The position numbers and the translations under genes were made by a program. From NCBI GenBank assembly GCA_049976845.1, contig JBMFHL010000024.1:1-11043 (forward strand): a stretch of 11,043 bases of DNA, given 5' to 3'. The DNA comes from Candidatus Micrarchaeia archaeon. Lineage in GTDB: Archaea; Micrarchaeota; Micrarchaeia; Micrarchaeales; CABMGC01. The notes beneath the pieces were generated by a model, which saw only the letters and a list, made by a program, of their open reading frames with translations, had not been told where the DNA came from and made no database searches. Of this stretch, positions 4,824 through 11,043 are shown one piece after another (within the stretch, counting starts at the first letter, position 1; every line of letters starts with the position of its first letter).

Positions 4824-5123
4824 ATGGCTGATCTAGCTAGGGACATAAGGCTTGCAGTGGATACGGGCAAGGTAGCCCTCGGTTACCGAGAGGTAGCAAA
4901 GTCTATAAGCGAAGACAAGGCGAAGGTTGTAATTATAGCAGAGAAAGGCGACAAAAATAGGATAAACGACCTGATACACCTGTGCAACATATCTGGCATA
5001 AAACTATGGAAGTACAACAGCGGCTCGATAGAGCTTGGAACAGTCTGCGGAAAGCCTTATTCAGTGAATGCTGTAGCCGTAATAGACCAGGGTCATTCAA
5101 ATATATTAAATGAAAGTTATTAA
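4824..5123 (+). CDS. rpl30e: 50S ribosomal protein L30e (eL30)
   Basis: AVDTGKVALG, KAKVVIIA, ELGTVCGKPY and IDQGHSNIL match eL30; 99 aa. Confidence 0.97.
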   Translation: MADLARDIRLAVDTGKVALGYREVAKSISEDKAKVVIIAEKGDKNRINDLIHLCNISGIKLWKYNSGSIELGTVCGKPYSVNAVAVIDQGHSNILNESY

Positions 5124-5141
5124 TTTGATTAGGTGCATCAT

Positions 5142-5570
5142 GTGCCACGAGGAGAATTTGCAGCAAAAGAAATCCTGAAGAAGAGGAAAAGGCAGCGTAT
5201 GCTTAAGAAATGGTGGAAAAGGAAATATTTCAAGCTCAAGGCAAAGCATGACCCTGTAGGGACTGTGCCTATGGCAAAGGGTATAGTATTGCAGAAGTTC
5301 ATGCTTCAGCAGAAGCAGCCACACAGCGGTCTGATAAAATGCGTGAGGGTGCAGCTTATTAAGAACGGGAAAGTTGTTGGCGTTTATGTGCCTGAAGATG
5401 GCGCAATAAACTTTATAGACGAGCACGACGAGGTAACAATACAAGGCCTTGGCGGCTCGCAAAGAGGCCAGATGGGATGTATTCCTGGACTTAAGTATAG
5501 AGCTATAGCAATAAACGGCATAGATCTAAGACAGATTGTAAAAGGCAAGAAGGAGAAGCCGAAGAGGTAA
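5142..5570 (+). CDS. rps12: 30S ribosomal protein S12 (uS12, archaeal/eukaryotic type), divergent
   Basis: MPRGEFAA..., PMAKGIVL, KCVRVQLIKNGK, DGAINFIDEHDEV, GKKEKPKR. GTG at 5142 is preferred because AGGTG (5131-5135) is positioned as its SD. Confidence 0.97.
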   Translation: MPRGEFAAKEILKKRKRQRMLKKWWKRKYFKLKAKHDPVGTVPMAKGIVLQKFMLQQKQPHSGLIKCVRVQLIKNGKVVGVYVPEDGAINFIDEHDEVTIQGLGGSQRGQMGCIPGLKYRAIAINGIDLRQIVKGKKEKPKR

Positions 5571-5574
5571 TTTG

Positions 5575-6375
5575 ATGGCTGATGATAATGCAACTGATAA
5601 AGGAAGAGAGCAGGCAAGCAGTGTAGCTCCAACAGAGAATGCTGCAGTTAAGGCTAAGCGCAGCGCAAAGAATATTCAGAGCGTAAATCCACCTGCGCAG
5701 GAAGGCGAAGCAGCAACAGCTAAGCAAGCTGCAAAGCCGAAGCGCTCAAGGAAAACCGATGCAGTAGCAGAGGAACAGCTCCTGTTCGGAAAATATTCTT
5801 TTTCAGGCATAACAATTGCAGACCAAAGCTTCTCTAATTATCTAAGTTTAATGCCAATGAAATATCCAAACATATATGGGAGAAGGAAGCAGCAAGCTTA
5901 CTACTTCTCACATGCAAATGTTATTGAAAGGCTCATGAACAAGCTCATGCGAGGCGGTACAGGCAAGAAAGTCGGCGGCAGGGTCATAAGGACAGAAGGC
6001 AAGCTGCAGGGCAAAAAAATAAAAGTGATGCACATAGTAGAGCAGGCATTTGACACAATAAACAAACAGACAGGAAAGAATCCGATACAACTGCTCGTAG
6101 AAGCGATAGAGAATGTGGCCCCGATAGAAGATACAACCAGAGTTAGATACGGAGGCATAAACTACAATGTCGCTGTTGACGTTAGTTCGCTGAGAAGGCT
6201 CAATATAGCGCTTAAGAATCTCGCTCTTGCGGCGATAATGGGTAGCTTTAAAAACAGGAAGTCAATTGCTGATGCGCTTGCTAATGAGATTATGCTAGCT
6301 GCAAGCAAGAGTCCTGAAAGCTATGCCATAAAGAAAAAGATTGATGCAGAGCGCATGGCCAGGAGTGCAAGGTAA
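5575..6375 (+). CDS. rps7: 30S ribosomal protein S7 (uS7) with long N-terminal extension
   Basis: LFGKY, IERLMNKLM, NPIQLLVEAIENVAPIED, AVDVSSLRR, LANEI, ERMARSAR; SD GAGGT at 5564-5568 before ATG 5575. Confidence 0.97.
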   Translation: MADDNATDKGREQASSVAPTENAAVKAKRSAKNIQSVNPPAQEGEAATAKQAAKPKRSRKTDAVAEEQLLFGKYSFSGITIADQSFSNYLSLMPMKYPNIYGRRKQQAYYFSHANVIERLMNKLMRGGTGKKVGGRVIRTEGKLQGKKIKVMHIVEQAFDTINKQTGKNPIQLLVEAIENVAPIEDTTRVRYGGINYNVAVDVSSLRRLNIALKNLALAAIMGSFKNRKSIADALANEIMLAASKSPESYAIKKKIDAERMARSAR

Positions 6376-6380
6376 TTTTT

Positions 6381-8573
6381 ATGGTTAAGAAAGAATTTGT
6401 TGCGGAAGAAGTAGCAAAAATCATGGACACTCCTGACAGGATAAGGAACGTAGCAATAGTTGCACATGTTCACCATGGGAAGACAACCCTTACCGATTCC
6501 CTTCTTGCGAAGGCAGGCATAATATCTAAAAGTGTGGCAGGCGAAGTGCTCTACACAAATTACGACGAGATAGAGAAGGAAAGAAGGATAACAATAAAAT
6601 CGGCCAACATCTCGCTTGCTTTTACCTACAGTGGCAGCGATTACATTATAAACCTGATAGACACTCCAGGGCACGTAGATTTTGGCGGCCACGTAACAAG
6701 GTCGATGCGCGCAGTCGACGGAATAGTTTTAGTTGTTGATCCGGTAGAAGGCGTCATGCCGCAGACAGAAACGGTCATGAGGCAAGCGCTGAAGGAGAAG
6801 GCGAAGCCGGTGCTTTTCGTCAACAAGGTTGACAGGCTCCTTAACGAGCTCAGGCTTACCCCGGAGCAAACATTCGAGAGGCTGCAGAAGCTCATAGAAG
6901 ATGTTAACAAGCTTATAAGGAAATATGCGCCTGAGGATGTCGCCGAAAAGTGGGCAGTGAAAGTCGAAAATGGCAGCGTGTGCTTAGGATCAGCTTATAA
7001 AAAATGGGCGATTTCAAAGAGGATAATGGACAAATATAAGGTCACTTTCAAGGATATATTTGCACTCACCGCAGCAAATGACGAGGCTAAGCTGCAGGAG
7101 GTTGCCCCAATAGACGAGGCAGTGCTGTCGATGATAATAGAGCATCTGCCGAATCCGAAGGAGGCTCAGCCATACAGAATACCTAATCTGTGGCACGGCG
7201 ATCTTTCTAGCGAAGAGGGCAAGGCAATGGTAAATGTGGATAGATCCGCAAAGGTCGCGATGGTGATTTTCGGTATAACTTATGATCAGCATGGCGGAGA
7301 GGTTGCAATAGGCAGGGTTTTTGCCGGCACAGTGAGAAAAGGCACGCTGCTCAACATATCTGGAAGAGTGGAGCCGCAGCGCGTGCAACAAGTTGGCTTG
7401 TATATGGGTCCAGACAGGGTGCCTGTTGAAGAAGTGCCAGCTGGCAACATAGCCGCTGTAGTAGGATTGAAAGACATAACAATAGGAGATACAGCAAGCG
7501 AATCCGAAATGGAGCCTTTTGAGCAGATTAAGCACTATTCACAGCCTGTGGTCACAAAGGCGGTAGAGGCAAAAGATCCAAGGGATACATCAAAGCTCAT
7601 AGAGGCATTGAGGGAGCTGTCAAAAGAGGATCCTACAATAGCCGTAGAGATAAATCAGGAAACTGGAGAGCATTTGGTCAAGGGTATGGGCGAGCTTCAT
7701 TTAGAGATAATAGAAACAAAGCTCAAAGATGAGTACAAAATACCAATAACAACAAGCGAGCCTATAGTGGTTTACAGGGAAACAATAGAAGGTACGGTAA
7801 AGGATGTTGAAGGCAAATCACCCAATAGGCATTCCAGATTCTATGTTACCGTTTCGCCACTCGAGCAGGGTGTTGTAGACCTTATCGAAAGCGGCACAAT
7901 GAGGGAAGGAAAGCCTAAAGGAAAGGCTTACGTGGAGGATTTGATAAAAGCTGGCATGGTCAGGGAAGAGGCAAAGGAGCTTGTTGATATTTCAAGCAAT
8001 AGCGTGCTTCTAGACATGACACACGGAGTACAGTACATTAACGAGGTCATGGAGCTGCTTATAGAGGGATTTGAGGAGGCTGTTAACGATGGCCCATTGG
8101 CAAGGGAGAAGTGCTCAGGCATAAAAGTAATAATAACTGATGCCACGATACACGAGGATCCTGTGCACAGGGGTCCTGCGCAGATAATACCTGCAATGAG
8201 AAGGCCGATATACGCCGGCATGCTGCAGGCAGGGGTTGTATTGCTTGAGCCAAAGCAGAAATTCACGATAAACATACCTCAAGAATACATGTCAGATGTA
8301 ATATCATTGCTTCAGGGCAAGCGCGGCCAGATACTCGAGATAGAGCAAGAAAACGAACAGGCAACAATAATAGCAAAAATGCCAGTGGCAGAGGTAATAA
8401 AAGGATTCTCTAACGAGCTAAGGGGCTTGACGCAGGGAAGAGCGATATGGTATTTCGAGTATGCAGGTTTTGAGAAGCTGTCAAAGGACCTGCAGGCTGA
8501 GGTAGTTCGTGAGATAAGGACTAGAAAAGGACAGCCTCCAGAGCCGCCAAGGCCGGAGCAGTTTATGGATTAA
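6381..8573 (+). CDS. fusA: Translation elongation factor EF-2 (aEF-2) with atypical G1 and switch I motifs
   Basis: 730 aa; INLIDTPGHVDFGG, NKVDR, GMGELHLEI, EPIVVYRE, diphthamide loop HEDPVHRGPAQ (His596 at 8166-8168), LLEP; canonical position after rps12-rps7. Confidence 0.98.
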   Translation: MVKKEFVAEEVAKIMDTPDRIRNVAIVAHVHHGKTTLTDSLLAKAGIISKSVAGEVLYTNYDEIEKERRITIKSANISLAFTYSGSDYIINLIDTPGHVDFGGHVTRSMRAVDGIVLVVDPVEGVMPQTETVMRQALKEKAKPVLFVNKVDRLLNELRLTPEQTFERLQKLIEDVNKLIRKYAPEDVAEKWAVKVENGSVCLGSAYKKWAISKRIMDKYKVTFKDIFALTAANDEAKLQEVAPIDEAVLSMIIEHLPNPKEAQPYRIPNLWHGDLSSEEGKAMVNVDRSAKVAMVIFGITYDQHGGEVAIGRVFAGTVRKGTLLNISGRVEPQRVQQVGLYMGPDRVPVEEVPAGNIAAVVGLKDITIGDTASESEMEPFEQIKHYSQPVVTKAVEAKDPRDTSKLIEALRELSKEDPTIAVEINQETGEHLVKGMGELHLEIIETKLKDEYKIPITTSEPIVVYRETIEGTVKDVEGKSPNRHSRFYVTVSPLEQGVVDLIESGTMREGKPKGKAYVEDLIKAGMVREEAKELVDISSNSVLLDMTHGVQYINEVMELLIEGFEEAVNDGPLAREKCSGIKVIITDATIHEDPVHRGPAQIIPAMRRPIYAGMLQAGVVLLEPKQKFTINIPQEYMSDVISLLQGKRGQILEIEQENEQATIIAKMPVAEVIKGFSNELRGLTQGRAIWYFEYAGFEKLSKDLQAEVVREIRTRKGQPPEPPRPEQFMD

Positions 8574-8589: not shown

Positions 8590-8620
8590 TTTGACAGAGA
8601 AGAAATTGCAACTAATCGTT

Positions 8621-8640
8621 GCACCAATGAAACGAGGTGT
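8621..8640 (+). promoter_or_regulatory. Kink-turn/k-loop element in the rpl7ae 5' UTR (candidate L7Ae autoregulatory site)
   Basis: GCACC-AAU-GA-AAC-GA-GGUGU: 5-bp stem, 3-nt bulge ending in U, tandem G-A/A-G pairs; contains the SD GAGGUG (8634-8639). Confidence 0.7.
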
Positions 8641-8644
8641 TTTT

Positions 8645-9100
8645 ATGGCAAAAGCATATGTGAAATTCGAAGTGTCAAAGGAAGTAGCAGATAAAATAGT
8701 CGAAGCAATAAGGTTAGCAAAGCAGAGCGGCGCCGTTAAGAAAGGCGCAAATGAAGTGACGAAAAGCATAGAGCGCGGCTTAGCAAGTTTTGTTGTAATT
8801 GCCGAGGACGTGGAACCGGAGGAAGTAGTAATGCACATCCCAATGCTCTGCGAGCAGAAAAAGATAACATTTGCATACCTGCCGACAAAAGAGATTCTTG
8901 GAAAGGCGGCGGGGCTTAATGTGCCTTGTACAGCAGTTGCAGTTGAGAAAATGGGGCAGGCGGAAGGGGCAATAAAGGAAATTGCTTCTAGGATAACAGG
9001 CAAACCACAGGAGAAAGCAGAGCCAAAGGAGAAGGCGGAGCAAAAGCCTCAGCCGAAGCCAAAGGCAGATGCGCAAGGCAAGCAGCAGCAAAAGAATTAA
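8645..9100 (+). CDS. rpl7ae: 50S ribosomal protein L7Ae (eL8) with charged C-terminal tail
   Basis: MAKAYVKFEV, KKGANEVTKSIERG, VVIAEDVEPEEVVMHIPMLCE, LGKAAGLNV; ATG 8645 follows SD GAGGTG; 151 aa. Confidence 0.97.
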   Translation: MAKAYVKFEVSKEVADKIVEAIRLAKQSGAVKKGANEVTKSIERGLASFVVIAEDVEPEEVVMHIPMLCEQKKITFAYLPTKEILGKAAGLNVPCTAVAVEKMGQAEGAIKEIASRITGKPQEKAEPKEKAEQKPQPKPKADAQGKQQQKN

Positions 9101-9115
9101 TGAAATGTGATAAGA

Positions 9116-9343
9116 ATGCCAGAAGAGGAAGACCAATTTGATGGCTTTTTAGCAGAGGTAGTAGAAGTGCCTAGGGTAAGAACAGGAATATTTGGCGAAG
9201 CAGAACACGTAATGTGCAAGATACTCCAGGGCAAAGACAAAGGTAGGGTAATAAGGCGCAATATGGTGGGTTTCGTCAAAGTTGGCGATTACGTCAGGCT
9301 GCCTGATACGACAAGAGAAGCAAAGCCCATAAGGGCAAGGTGA
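9116..9343 (+). CDS. rps28e: 30S ribosomal protein S28e (eS28)
   Basis: AEVVEV..RTGIFGE..VMCKILQGKDKGRVIRRN..G.VKVGD....TTREA; ATG 9116 preferred over GTG 9107, which overlaps the SD-like TGTGA. Confidence 0.95.
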   Translation: MPEEEDQFDGFLAEVVEVPRVRTGIFGEAEHVMCKILQGKDKGRVIRRNMVGFVKVGDYVRLPDTTREAKPIRAR

Positions 9344-9965: not shown

Positions 9966-11043
9966 ATGGAAATCAAAGAAAAAGCTGTTAATAAGAGCCG
10001 ACAACAAGACAGCATACAAATACCAAAATTTGATGTCGCAAAAGAAAGCATACGCCAATCTGTAAACTACTTCAGCGACGTGACATCGTCTGCACGCAAG
10101 CTTAAAAAAGAGCTTAAATATAGAGACATAATTATATTCAATTCGAACTGGGTTGCAACCTATCATGTAGCAGAAACCCTTGCTCGTGCGACTAAAGACA
10201 AAGAGACACTAGATAAGCTTGAAGAGATAAATGAAAATATAAGGAAAAATGCGGCAGAGTTAGGCTATGAGACAAGCAACTACTCTACAAAGAAGCTCAG
10301 GGGAAAAAACTATCAAAGTGTAAAGGACATAATCGAAGCAGATCTTAAATTCAGGCCTACAGTTTTCGATGATATTGATTCAGCAACAATTGACTATATA
10401 CTCGAAATAAAGAGTCTTTTGAGGCAATTGGTCTTGCCAGACAATGTAGGTTCTAGCGTTGCAGCTAAGCCAGATGCCGAAGAGCAAAAAAGGAAAGAAG
10501 AACAAAAAAAGAAGGAAGAGCAAGACGCAAAAGACGCAGAAGAAAAGGAGAAGCAAAAGCAAGAGAAGAAAGATAAAAAGCTTAAGGGAAAGAATTCAGC
10601 TGTAATAATAAATGAGCAACAACCAGCTGAGAATCCGAAAAAAAAGGTTCAATCTGGTCCTGCGATAATAAAAGAAAAGATAAACAACGAGAACAAGGAG
10701 AATGAAGCTGCAAAGCTAAAAGAACAAAAGAGGCTGCTTAGGGTTCAAAAACCTCAGGAACAAACAGCGCAGAACGAGCAGAAGAAAATTGAGATACAGC
10801 AGCATAACAAAATAAGAAACGTAGGTGCAAGGCTTACGCAAATTGGCGTAGCATTAGATGTGGCAGGTGCAGCCGTAGCCTGGGTGTTTGGGCCTGTAGG
10901 TGTATTGCCTGGCATAATATTGGGCACAATAGGTGTGCCCTCTTTGGCAGCGGGTATACCAATGTGGCTTGCCGGGGTTTTTATAGACGATCATAGGAGC
11001 AAGAAAGCAGCAAAATCTGCAGTATCAAAGCAGCAGCAGCAAC
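9966..11043 (+). CDS. Hypothetical membrane-anchored protein: helical N-domain, K/E/Q-rich linker, Gly-rich hydrophobic hairpin (partial, 3' end beyond window)
   Basis: ATG 9966 after SD GGTG (9957-9960); open for 359 codons to the edge: MEIKEKAVNK...EEQKRKEEQKKKEEQ...IGVALDVAGAAVAWVFGPVGVLPGIILGTIGVPSLAAGIPMWLAGVFIDDHRSKK. Not in the ORF track. Confidence 0.88.
   Translation, partial: MEIKEKAVNKSRQQDSIQIPKFDVAKESIRQSVNYFSDVTSSARKLKKELKYRDIIIFNSNWVATYHVAETLARATKDKETLDKLEEINENIRKNAAELGYETSNYSTKKLRGKNYQSVKDIIEADLKFRPTVFDDIDSATIDYILEIKSLLRQLVLPDNVGSSVAAKPDAEEQKRKEEQKKKEEQDAKDAEEKEKQKQEKKDKKLKGKNSAVIINEQQPAENPKKKVQSGPAIIKEKINNENKENEAAKLKEQKRLLRVQKPQEQTAQNEQKKIEIQQHNKIRNVGARLTQIGVALDVAGAAVAWVFGPVGVLPGIILGTIGVPSLAAGIPMWLAGVFIDDHRSKKAAKSAVSKQQQQ

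Follow-up and report, generated by a model that had tools for sequence, protein, structure and literature searches.

A P-loop histidine and a remodelled switch I in the sole EF-2 of a Micrarchaeia archaeon

Translational GTPases share a P-loop aspartate that has been called conserved in all ribosome-activated members of the group, where it is regarded as a second catalytic residue (PMC5084732, PMC9825190). Can a ribosomal translocase work without it? The question is raised by the archaeal elongation factor 2 (aEF-2) gene on contig JBMFHL010000024.1 of a Candidatus Micrarchaeia archaeon (assembly GCA_049976845.1), of which a stretch of 11,043 nucleotides, here called the window, was analysed. 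In the encoded protein, a histidine (His31) stands in the place of this aspartate, while Asn60 and Arg69 replace an aspartate and a glycine of switch I. The combination of His31 with Asn60 and Arg or Lys69, as seen in Micrarchaeota, is referred to below as H-type, and its core is defined as His31 with neither Asp60 nor Gly69. As judged from sequence comparison, this core has evolved repeatedly in unrelated archaea.

The EF-2 of the window and its GTPase centre

The features of the gene, all on the + strand, are as follows.

6381-8573, +: aEF-2 gene, 730 amino acids (open reading frame and translation), with five EF-2 domains; sole EF-2 of the genome
6462-6485, +: G1/P-loop AHVHHGKT, residues 28-35, aligning with ahidhgkt of the solved aEF-2 5h7j
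6471-6473, +: codon CAC of His31, replacing the P-loop Asp (direct reading of the sequence)
6531-6596, +: remodelled switch I, residues 51-72, with clade-diagnostic columns 51, 52, 56-60, 66 and 69 (9 of 23; signature analysis of 103 EF-2)
6552-6596, +: switch I YTNYDEIEKERRITI, residues 58-72, carrying Asn60, Arg69 and Thr71
6558-6560, +: codon of Asn60, replacing the switch I Asp 11 residues ahead of the Mg-binding Thr
6585-6587, +: codon AGG of Arg69, replacing the switch I Gly that faces the cation site with its carbonyl
6591-6593, +: Thr71, the Mg-binding switch I threonine, kept and equivalent to Thr71 of MnEF-2
6660-6674, +: G3 DTPGH, residues 94-98, with the catalytic His98, kept
6822-6833, +: G4 NKVD, residues 148-151, kept
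8151-8174, +: diphthamide loop HEDPVHRG of domain IV, residues 591-598, kept

The reading frame is open over its full length, and an identical EF-2 protein is recorded on two contigs. The protein scores 975.4 bits against TIGR00490, the NCBIfam aEF-2 equivalog (cut-off 738.45), and its Pfam matches to GTP_EFTU, GTP_EFTU_D2/EF-G_D2, EFG_III, EFG_IV and EFG_C all lie over cut-off. Alignment with P. horikoshii aEF-2 (5h7j) covers 722 residues with two small gaps, none of them around the cation site, and pairs His31 with Asp, Asn60 with Asp and Arg69 with Gly; the numbering matches Asp31 and Gly69 of Methanoperedens EF-2 (PMC8244253). Both Mg-binding threonines, Thr35 (GKT, 33-35) and Thr71 (ITI, 70-72), are present. 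An initial annotation of the window had placed the His31, Asn and Arg codons and the AHVHHGKT motif correctly to the base, and its statement that DTPGH, NKVD and the diphthamide HRG are intact in a gene at the canonical str position is borne out by the motifs and by the Pfam assignment of the neighbours.

In the GMPPCP complex of MnEF-2, a nascent monovalent-cation site resembling that of eIF5B is built from the carboxylate of Asp31, the backbone carbonyl of Gly69 and oxygens of the phosphates (PMC8244253). Both residues of the Kuhle-Ficner definition of such a site, the P-loop Asp and the switch I Gly, are absent from the window EF-2. The initial annotation took both as replaced cation ligands. 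This holds for the carboxylate of Asp31 but not for the side chain of Gly69; the latter contributes its backbone carbonyl (PMC8244253), and its replacement therefore deletes no ligand atom. Likewise, the switch I Gly is indeed lost here, but it is a poorly conserved ligand elsewhere. The switch I residue is described as variable in EFGII, Ria1, Snu114, eEF2 and aIF5B (PMC4342817). Among 50%-identity representatives of the EF-2 family (the best 150 plus the query), 93 had a parsed switch I, with Gly in 75 and another residue in 18, some of which keep Asp31. The P-loop, recognisable in 98 representatives, carries Asp in 94, His in three (one of them the query) and Ser in one.

The genome spans 731 kb on 52 contigs and is 90% complete. 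A search of this genome returned one EF-2 match and no second EF-2, canonical or otherwise, at that completeness; besides it, three other translational GTPases matched weakly (E 3e-8 to 7e-4). Asp and Gly have been lost from EF-2 alone, since the aIF5B-type protein (GHVDHGKT and GGIT), EF-1alpha (GHIDHGKS and RGIT) and an EF-1alpha-like protein (GHKDHGKS and GGLT) of the same genome keep both. The last of these, a divergent EF-1alpha/CysN-like GTPase of 409 amino acids, is encoded on contig C12 (L004:724-1953, - strand); among NCBIfam models it scores highest with EF-1alpha (289.6 bits; cut-off 502), and it gives this 0.73-Mb genome a second member of the EF-1 family. The same picture extends to 41 related genomes of the genus, family and order. 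Each of the 41 has two to four P-loops of the form Gly-His-[IVM]-Asp-His-Gly-Lys (reversed-pattern control, 0), and at E <= 1e-30 an EF-2 was matched in 39, once only in 38 of them; in G005 one EF-2 gene is split across two contigs, and the two genomes with no match are 88% and 84% complete. In five of five other H-type genomes tested, the H-type gene is the sole EF-2 at E <= 1e-20. On the strength of this sole-copy status, the window EF-2 appears to be the organism's single, working translocase. The ribosomal side of the GTPase centre shows no corresponding change, the sarcin-ricin loop (SRL) core of the organism's own 23S rRNA being unchanged.

Distribution and origin of the H-type state

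The sources named for near-identical proteins assign the lineage to Candidatus Micrarchaeota (Micrarchaeia, Micrarchaeaceae). The depth of the change within Micrarchaeota was assessed in 103 full-length EF-2 sequences, drawn from the 41 close genomes and a 201-genome class sample (197 with a match). One of the 62 His rows, L030, comes from a genome flagged as unpublished, and no result depends on it. Positions 31 and 69 read His/Arg in 50 sequences, His/Lys in 12, Asp/Gly in 36 and Asp/Ser in five. The full state, His31/Asn60/Arg-or-Lys69, occurs in 62 of the 64 rows of two families of the same order, f1 (31 of 33) and f3 (31 of 31), so that HHGKT and RxIT do co-occur in a clade, as the initial annotation had proposed to check; the two exceptions, f1 genera g7 and g34, are fully canonical. 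Asp31 and Asp60 are found in all 39 rows outside these families, namely f2, the third family of the order, and 38 rows of 24 further families. At position 31, therefore, every one of the 62 H-clade rows has His, and the 41 others have Asp. Twenty-three alignment columns cleanly tell the His rows apart from the other class members, and 11 of them fall within residues 31-69: D31H, V42L, E51(S/T/A), L52V, Q56(V/A), R57L, V58Y, (M/L)59T, D60N, Q66K and G69(R/K).

A sequencing or assembly error, or a pseudogene, would be the simplest account of three such changes, each of which is one base from a canonical codon. It has practically no standing here: the frame is full-length and open, His31 is present in all of the best 120 database matches to residues 1-120, so that none of these has the Asp codon considered possible in close relatives, and the full state is found in 62 related genomes. 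Sequencing error is excluded because relatives carry the same residues. Among the same 120 matches, Thr-Asn plus Arg/Lys was read by pattern in 119, the remaining one being unparsed. The codons themselves have turned over. At 63 related loci, His31 is encoded by CAC (51) or CAT (12), Asn60 by AAC (47) or AAT (16), and position 69 by AGG (26), AGA (16), AAG (10), CGC (5), AAA (2), CGT (2) or CGA (2). Such synonymous turnover at all three positions marks long-term purifying selection on the amino-acid state, which is fixed across two Micrarchaeota families. Inside each clade the H-type is strictly conserved over 67-88% overall identity.

A variant switch I was also observed in canonical P-loop contexts. 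RSMT replaces RGIT, while Asp31 and Asp60 are kept, in L058 (G025), from the third family of this archaeon's order, and, as an independent case, in L071, L072, L073 and L102, all of genus g62 in family f8. These variants may represent a first step toward the H-type.

The change is not a peculiarity of one genome, being order-wide in Micrarchaeota and recurrent across archaea. A DNA scan of one genome per species for Ala-His-[IVM]-His-His-Gly-Lys-Thr returned at least 120 loci, of which 80 were examined and 77 were readable. Among the matches listed, all 77 readable loci are EF-2 N-termini, and their labels include Micrarchaeota, Thermoplasmata (with a Lutacidiplasmatales metagenome-assembled genome), Woesearchaeota, Pacearchaeota and other Nanoarchaeota. 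The complete genome of Candidatus Nanopusillus acidilobi, an organism grown in co-culture, is also among the matches listed and has an H-type EF-2. At these 77 listed loci the residue 11 positions before the Mg-binding Thr is never Asp (Asn 29, Trp 48) and the residue two positions before it is never Gly (Leu 60, Arg 12, Lys 3, Glu 1, Cys 1), so that the concerted change proposed in the initial annotation, His31 together with loss of Asp60 and Gly69, is seen in every one of them. Pattern tallies give 50 H-type and 131 D-type among 201 Nanoarchaeota genomes, with both in one genome and neither in 21, and 18 H-type among 151 Thermoplasmata genomes (one of the 18 from an unpublished genome). The case is clearest in Thermoplasmata. 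Here, the H-type genes read AHIHHGKTT...LN[FY]DEQEQ.R[LQK]LTINNA and their canonical relatives AHIDHGKTT...LD[YF]DEQEQARGITINAA, so that the two cassettes differ almost only by D31H, D60N, G69(L/Q/K), I70L and A75N.

Two further observations concern the loci collected. A 2.6-kb contig of JABAZZJ type labelled Paceibacterota bacterium (L183) and three loci labelled Methanosarcinales (L112, L123, L145) carry EF-2 N-termini of Woesearchaeota/Pacearchaeota type, which suggests mislabelled or contaminated bins. EF-2 frames of 916-1250 amino acids with no contiguous P-loop motif (L095 on G168:C39, and P0003, P0005-P0008, P0010, P0011, P0013 and P0019) probably contain inteins in or near G1.

The residues at position 69 bear on the proposal that Arg69 is a built-in arginine finger, reaching the gamma-phosphate and replacing the cation. 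Within the Micrarchaeota H clade the position is always basic (Arg 50, Lys 12 of 62), its seven Arg/Lys codons argue for selection on charge, and the gain of Lys66 with the loss of Asp31, Asp60 and Glu51 would leave the pocket more positive. Other His31 lineages, however, have Leu (60 loci), Glu (1) or Cys (1) among the matches listed, and Thermoplasmata also Gln or Lys; Arg69 moreover co-occurs with Asp31 in the divergent, paralog-like P0046 and P0054, and in canonical EF-2 residue 69 faces the cation site by its backbone carbonyl. With Leu, Gln, Glu or Cys at this position elsewhere, a basic residue is unneeded for the H-type, and the finger therefore fails as a general principle. As the explanation of the window EF-2 it seems distinctly unlikely, although a version restricted to the Micrarchaeota clade is possible.

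How tightly the three positions are coupled was followed in 88 EF-2 sequences, 41 with His31 and 47 with Asp31. Gly69 is absent from all 41 His31 rows, and Asp60 from 40 of them; Asp60 is present in all 47 Asp31 rows. In seven of these Gly69 is gone, and most of the seven also have Met for Ile70. These counts suggest an order of events in which Gly69 was lost first, followed by D31H and then by loss of Asp60. On a tree of the 88 rows built with columns 26-76 left out (LG+G4), eight state changes are needed, seven of them forced by branches with support of at least 95 in the Shimodaira-Hasegawa-like approximate likelihood ratio test (SH-aLRT). Of seven independent pairs, six show the loss of Asp60 together with His31 and none the reverse (p 0.031), while Gly69 loss accompanies His31 in six to seven (p 0.016). 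Three origins form a robust minimum: one in Micrarchaeota, within the class, and one each in Thermoplasmata and Nanoarchaeota, beside canonical relatives (supports 99-100). That Micrarchaeota acquired their H-type G domain from some other H-type lineage was considered and rejected, as residues 77-262 nest within their own class (99); the H-type state therefore arose in place.

The canonical state may also have returned, by exchange of the G domain. A D-type Nanoarchaeota gene, L247 (G307:C1:67012-69382), is sister to the H-type L234 with a support of 100 when the cassette is left out. In sliding windows, its residues 1-270 are nearest to D-type genes (mean identity 0.63-0.79 versus 0.42-0.92 to L234) and its residues 360-730 nearest to L234 (0.65-0.88 versus 0.45-0.74). 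By these identities, L247 appears to be a chimera, with a whole G domain from the other type and domains III-V close to those of H-type L234. A similar replacement is likely in the canonical Micrarchaeota genera g7 and g34 (L028 and L059), whose residues 1-90 resemble canonical class members (0.69-0.75 versus 0.55-0.63) and whose domains II-V show 0.712 to family f1 (f1 internal 0.725) and 0.643 to f3. The trees place these two genes differently. The full-length tree, and a 31-row tree from which the trait columns were dropped (98), set them apart from the H clade; an 88-row tree likewise lacking these columns (97) and a domains II-V tree (94/90/84, quick search) put them within f1; and in the tree of the G-domain remainder they are sister to the H clade (97). 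An approximately unbiased (AU) test on domains II-V against H monophyly gave a log-likelihood difference of 32.1 with p 0.040, a marginal value for a group that was named after the tree had been seen. A setting in which G-domain exchange could happen is found in G331, of Woesearchaeota type, where two EF-2 genes lie about 0.8 kb apart on one strand (L235:1286-3532 and L235:4312-6456, both -). One is H-type with the loop HEDAIHRG, the other is D-type, lacks the HRG loop and looks like an aEF-2p paralog.

Near-neutral drift, in which a slightly deleterious change was fixed in small populations and then compensated with no new property, can be weighed against these data. DPANN lineages are fast-evolving, and in several lineages a residue other than Gly stands at 69 although Asp31 is kept (7 of 47 Asp31 rows), which suggests a permissive first step. 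Yet at least seven state changes share one core, conservation within clades is strict over the identity range given above, and the canonical state was apparently regained by G-domain replacement and not by gradual wandering, which makes drift very unlikely. The initial annotation had named a widespread and neutral variant as an outcome that would speak against a functional change; the variant is widespread, but a state so strictly conserved and so repeatedly co-evolved does not look neutral.

A possible working of the H-type centre

The published work on the P-loop Asp gives it several roles. K+ stimulation is lost in Asp mutants of eIF5B and EF-Tu (PMC5084732), the equivalent Asp holds a Mg2+ near A2662 in ribosome-bound EF-G (PMC5084732), and on the ribosome the side chain of the EF-Tu Asp is seated in an SRL pocket (PMC9825190). 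The explanation that we favour, with slightly more confidence than doubt, is an H-type GTPase centre in which His31 stands in for the pair of Asp and metal, giving a translocase with no diffusible cation at that place. The joint exchange of His31, Asn60 and Arg/Lys69, with about eight further switch I changes, would mark a discrete alternative state. Loss of the Asp31 carboxylate would abolish the monovalent-cation site and would also remove the Asp-held Mg2+ next to A2662 of the SRL. The imidazole or imidazolium of His31 could then offer a positive charge or a hydrogen bond to the alpha and gamma phosphates, the SRL backbone, or both, while removal of Asp60 and the clade-specific Arg/Lys69 and Lys66 would rebalance the charge of the pocket. 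GTP hydrolysis would be triggered as usual, by His98 of DTPGH and the unchanged SRL, and the outcome would be a translocase needing no diffusible cation at the Asp31 site.

Several points weigh against this explanation. The placement and charge state of His31, and likewise an empty cation site, are what we infer from the residues present. The 623-amino-acid representative P0029 combines His31 with a retained Asp60, so the coupling of His31 with Asp60 loss is not absolute, and the trees are short searches with SH-aLRT support only. No K+ stimulation of EF-Tu GTPase was seen on the ribosome, according to the review of Maracci and Rodnina (PMC5084732); not needing a cation may therefore make a difference only away from the ribosome. 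In yeast Snu114, His143 occupies the P-loop Asp position (H143-S144-G145-K146-T147), as the initial annotation had noted, and touches the phosphates via its backbone NH, while GTP is held unhydrolysed in the complexes studied (PMC7192624). A His at this position is thus also compatible with low activity.

The Snu114 comparison leads to the idea of an attenuated, slow GTPase, tolerated or even useful for slow and accurate translocation in slow growers. In EF-Tu, Asp21Ala lowers the ribosome-stimulated GTPase about 1000-fold (PMC5084732), Snu114 with its His at the same position stays GTP-bound (PMC7192624), and many H-type carriers have genomes of 0.5-1.1 Mb. This account is nevertheless unlikely, as the H-type gene is the sole EF-2 and keeps all remaining catalytic elements, the state is also found in Thermoplasmata with genomes of 0.9-2.3 Mb, and the fixation of identical partner sites each time looks like compensation, not decay.

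A highly improbable alternative is escape, whereby a toxin or regulator would modify the exposed P-loop Asp, with His31 evading it and switch I compensating. H-type carriers include episymbionts and also Thermoplasmata, a class that supplies hosts to Micrarchaeota. A bacterial toxin does ADP-ribosylate exactly this residue in EF-Tu, D21, and leaves the variants D21A/E/N unmodified (PMC9825190). Against escape, no Asp-directed toxin acting on archaeal EF-2 is known, although no search for one was made, and EF-1alpha and aIF5B of the same genome keep their Asp, as do the Asp P-loops in all 41 related genomes. An explanation of His31 by acidophily or low pH was considered and dropped; many Woesearchaeota and Pacearchaeota carriers of the H-type come from neutral waters.

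Returning to His31 as the substitute for Asp and metal, a broader reading can be built on it, which is plausible if tentative, and which we would hold more loosely. Archaeal translocases may use two GTPase-centre designs, one of Asp plus metal and one metal-free and histidine-based, the latter having arisen independently in Micrarchaeota, Thermoplasmata and Nanoarchaeota (there more than once) as an all-or-none module that can be reverted by a G-domain swap.

Known relatives, gene context and implications

Compared with canonical aEF-2 (P. horikoshii 5h7j, M. nitroreducens 6u45), the window EF-2 agrees in family, length, five-domain build, gene context, catalytic His, Mg-binding Thr residues and diphthamide loop, and differs by His, Asn and Arg in place of Asp31, Asp60 and Gly69, plus eight further switch I positions specific to the clade. 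With Snu114 it shares the His at the P-loop Asp position and a non-conserved switch I cation residue (PMC7192624, PMC4342817). Snu114, however, is eukaryotic, spliceosomal and GTP-bound, with solved chains of 853-972 residues, whereas the window EF-2 is a sole archaeal EF-2 with domain IV translocase loops; its best solved relatives are archaeal EF-2 (E 6e-251), with Snu114 chains at E ~1e-81, and membership in the Snu114 family was rejected on this nearest kinship. Natural losses of both the P-loop Asp and the switch I Gly also occur in eIF2-gamma and bacterial EFGII (PMC4342817, PMC8244253), but these carry Ala and Gly, respectively, at the Asp position (Atkinson 2015, PMC4342817) where the window EF-2 has His. 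Moreover, eIF2-gamma is activated by a protein and not by the ribosome (PMC5084732), and EF-G-2 is described without the catalytic His (PMC8244253), which the window EF-2 keeps. K+-activated MnmE and FeoB use a cation, and arginine-finger GTPases a positive group borne by a protein, to occupy one and the same place next to the phosphates (PMC6310460, PMC5084732); the substitute proposed here differs in being a cis His inside the P-loop, for which the cited sources describe no activating role.

The divergent aEF-2p paralogs were a further candidate. P0046 and P0054, in this class, have Arg69 and a similar EKERRMT stretch but keep Asp31. The domain IV diphthamide loop separates bona fide aEF-2 from aEF-2p, which lacks it and coexists with a bona fide EF-2 (Narrowe et al. 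2018, PMC6143161). Since the window protein possesses this loop and no second EF-2 was found in its genome, it was rejected as an aEF-2p. A His at the P-loop Asp position of archaeal EF-2 was not found described in the full-text literature searched, which covers subscription journals to a small extent and excludes supplementary alignments. The passages of Atkinson 2015 on this position name no His for aEF-2 (PMC4342817), and the word 'switch' is absent from the account of archaeal EF-2 evolution by Narrowe et al. 2018 (PMC6143161). The H-type aEF-2, not found described in this literature, is broader than the initial annotation had supposed.

The gene lies in a canonical str-type context, with these neighbours assigned by Pfam.

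4824-5123, +: L30e, upstream
5133-5570, +: S12, upstream
5572-6375, +: S7, upstream
8591-9100, +: L7Ae, downstream
9107-9343, +: S28e, downstream

Two of the neighbours have unusual ends. S7 (267 amino acids) matches Pfam over residues 114-267 and carries an N-terminal extension of about 110 amino acids rich in Ala, Lys and Gln, and L7Ae (169 amino acids) matches at 35-125 and has a Lys/Pro/Gln-rich C-terminal tail. The open reading frames at 1826-2935 (369 amino acids) and 9966-11042 (more than 359 amino acids, running off the window end) gave no Pfam or NCBIfam family match; the product of the latter has a long stretch rich in Lys and Glu, and its C-terminal segment is hydrophobic.

The role of the P-loop Asp is still argued, with a monovalent cation, a Mg2+ bridge to the SRL, and electrostatics as the candidates. 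Here, an essential single-copy translocase lacks this residue in whole clades, and the same partner sites change each time. The natural double and triple mutants, together with the apparent revertant chimeras, offer a ready-made test of the role of the Asp and of the cation. There is also a warning for phylogeny, in which EF-2 is a common marker: its G domain is convergent and may be recombining. If the reading of two GTPase-centre designs is true, the 'invariant' P-loop Asp and its cation would be inessential for ribosome-activated GTP hydrolysis, and the archaeal EF-2 family would hold nature's own mutant-cycle experiment on this site.

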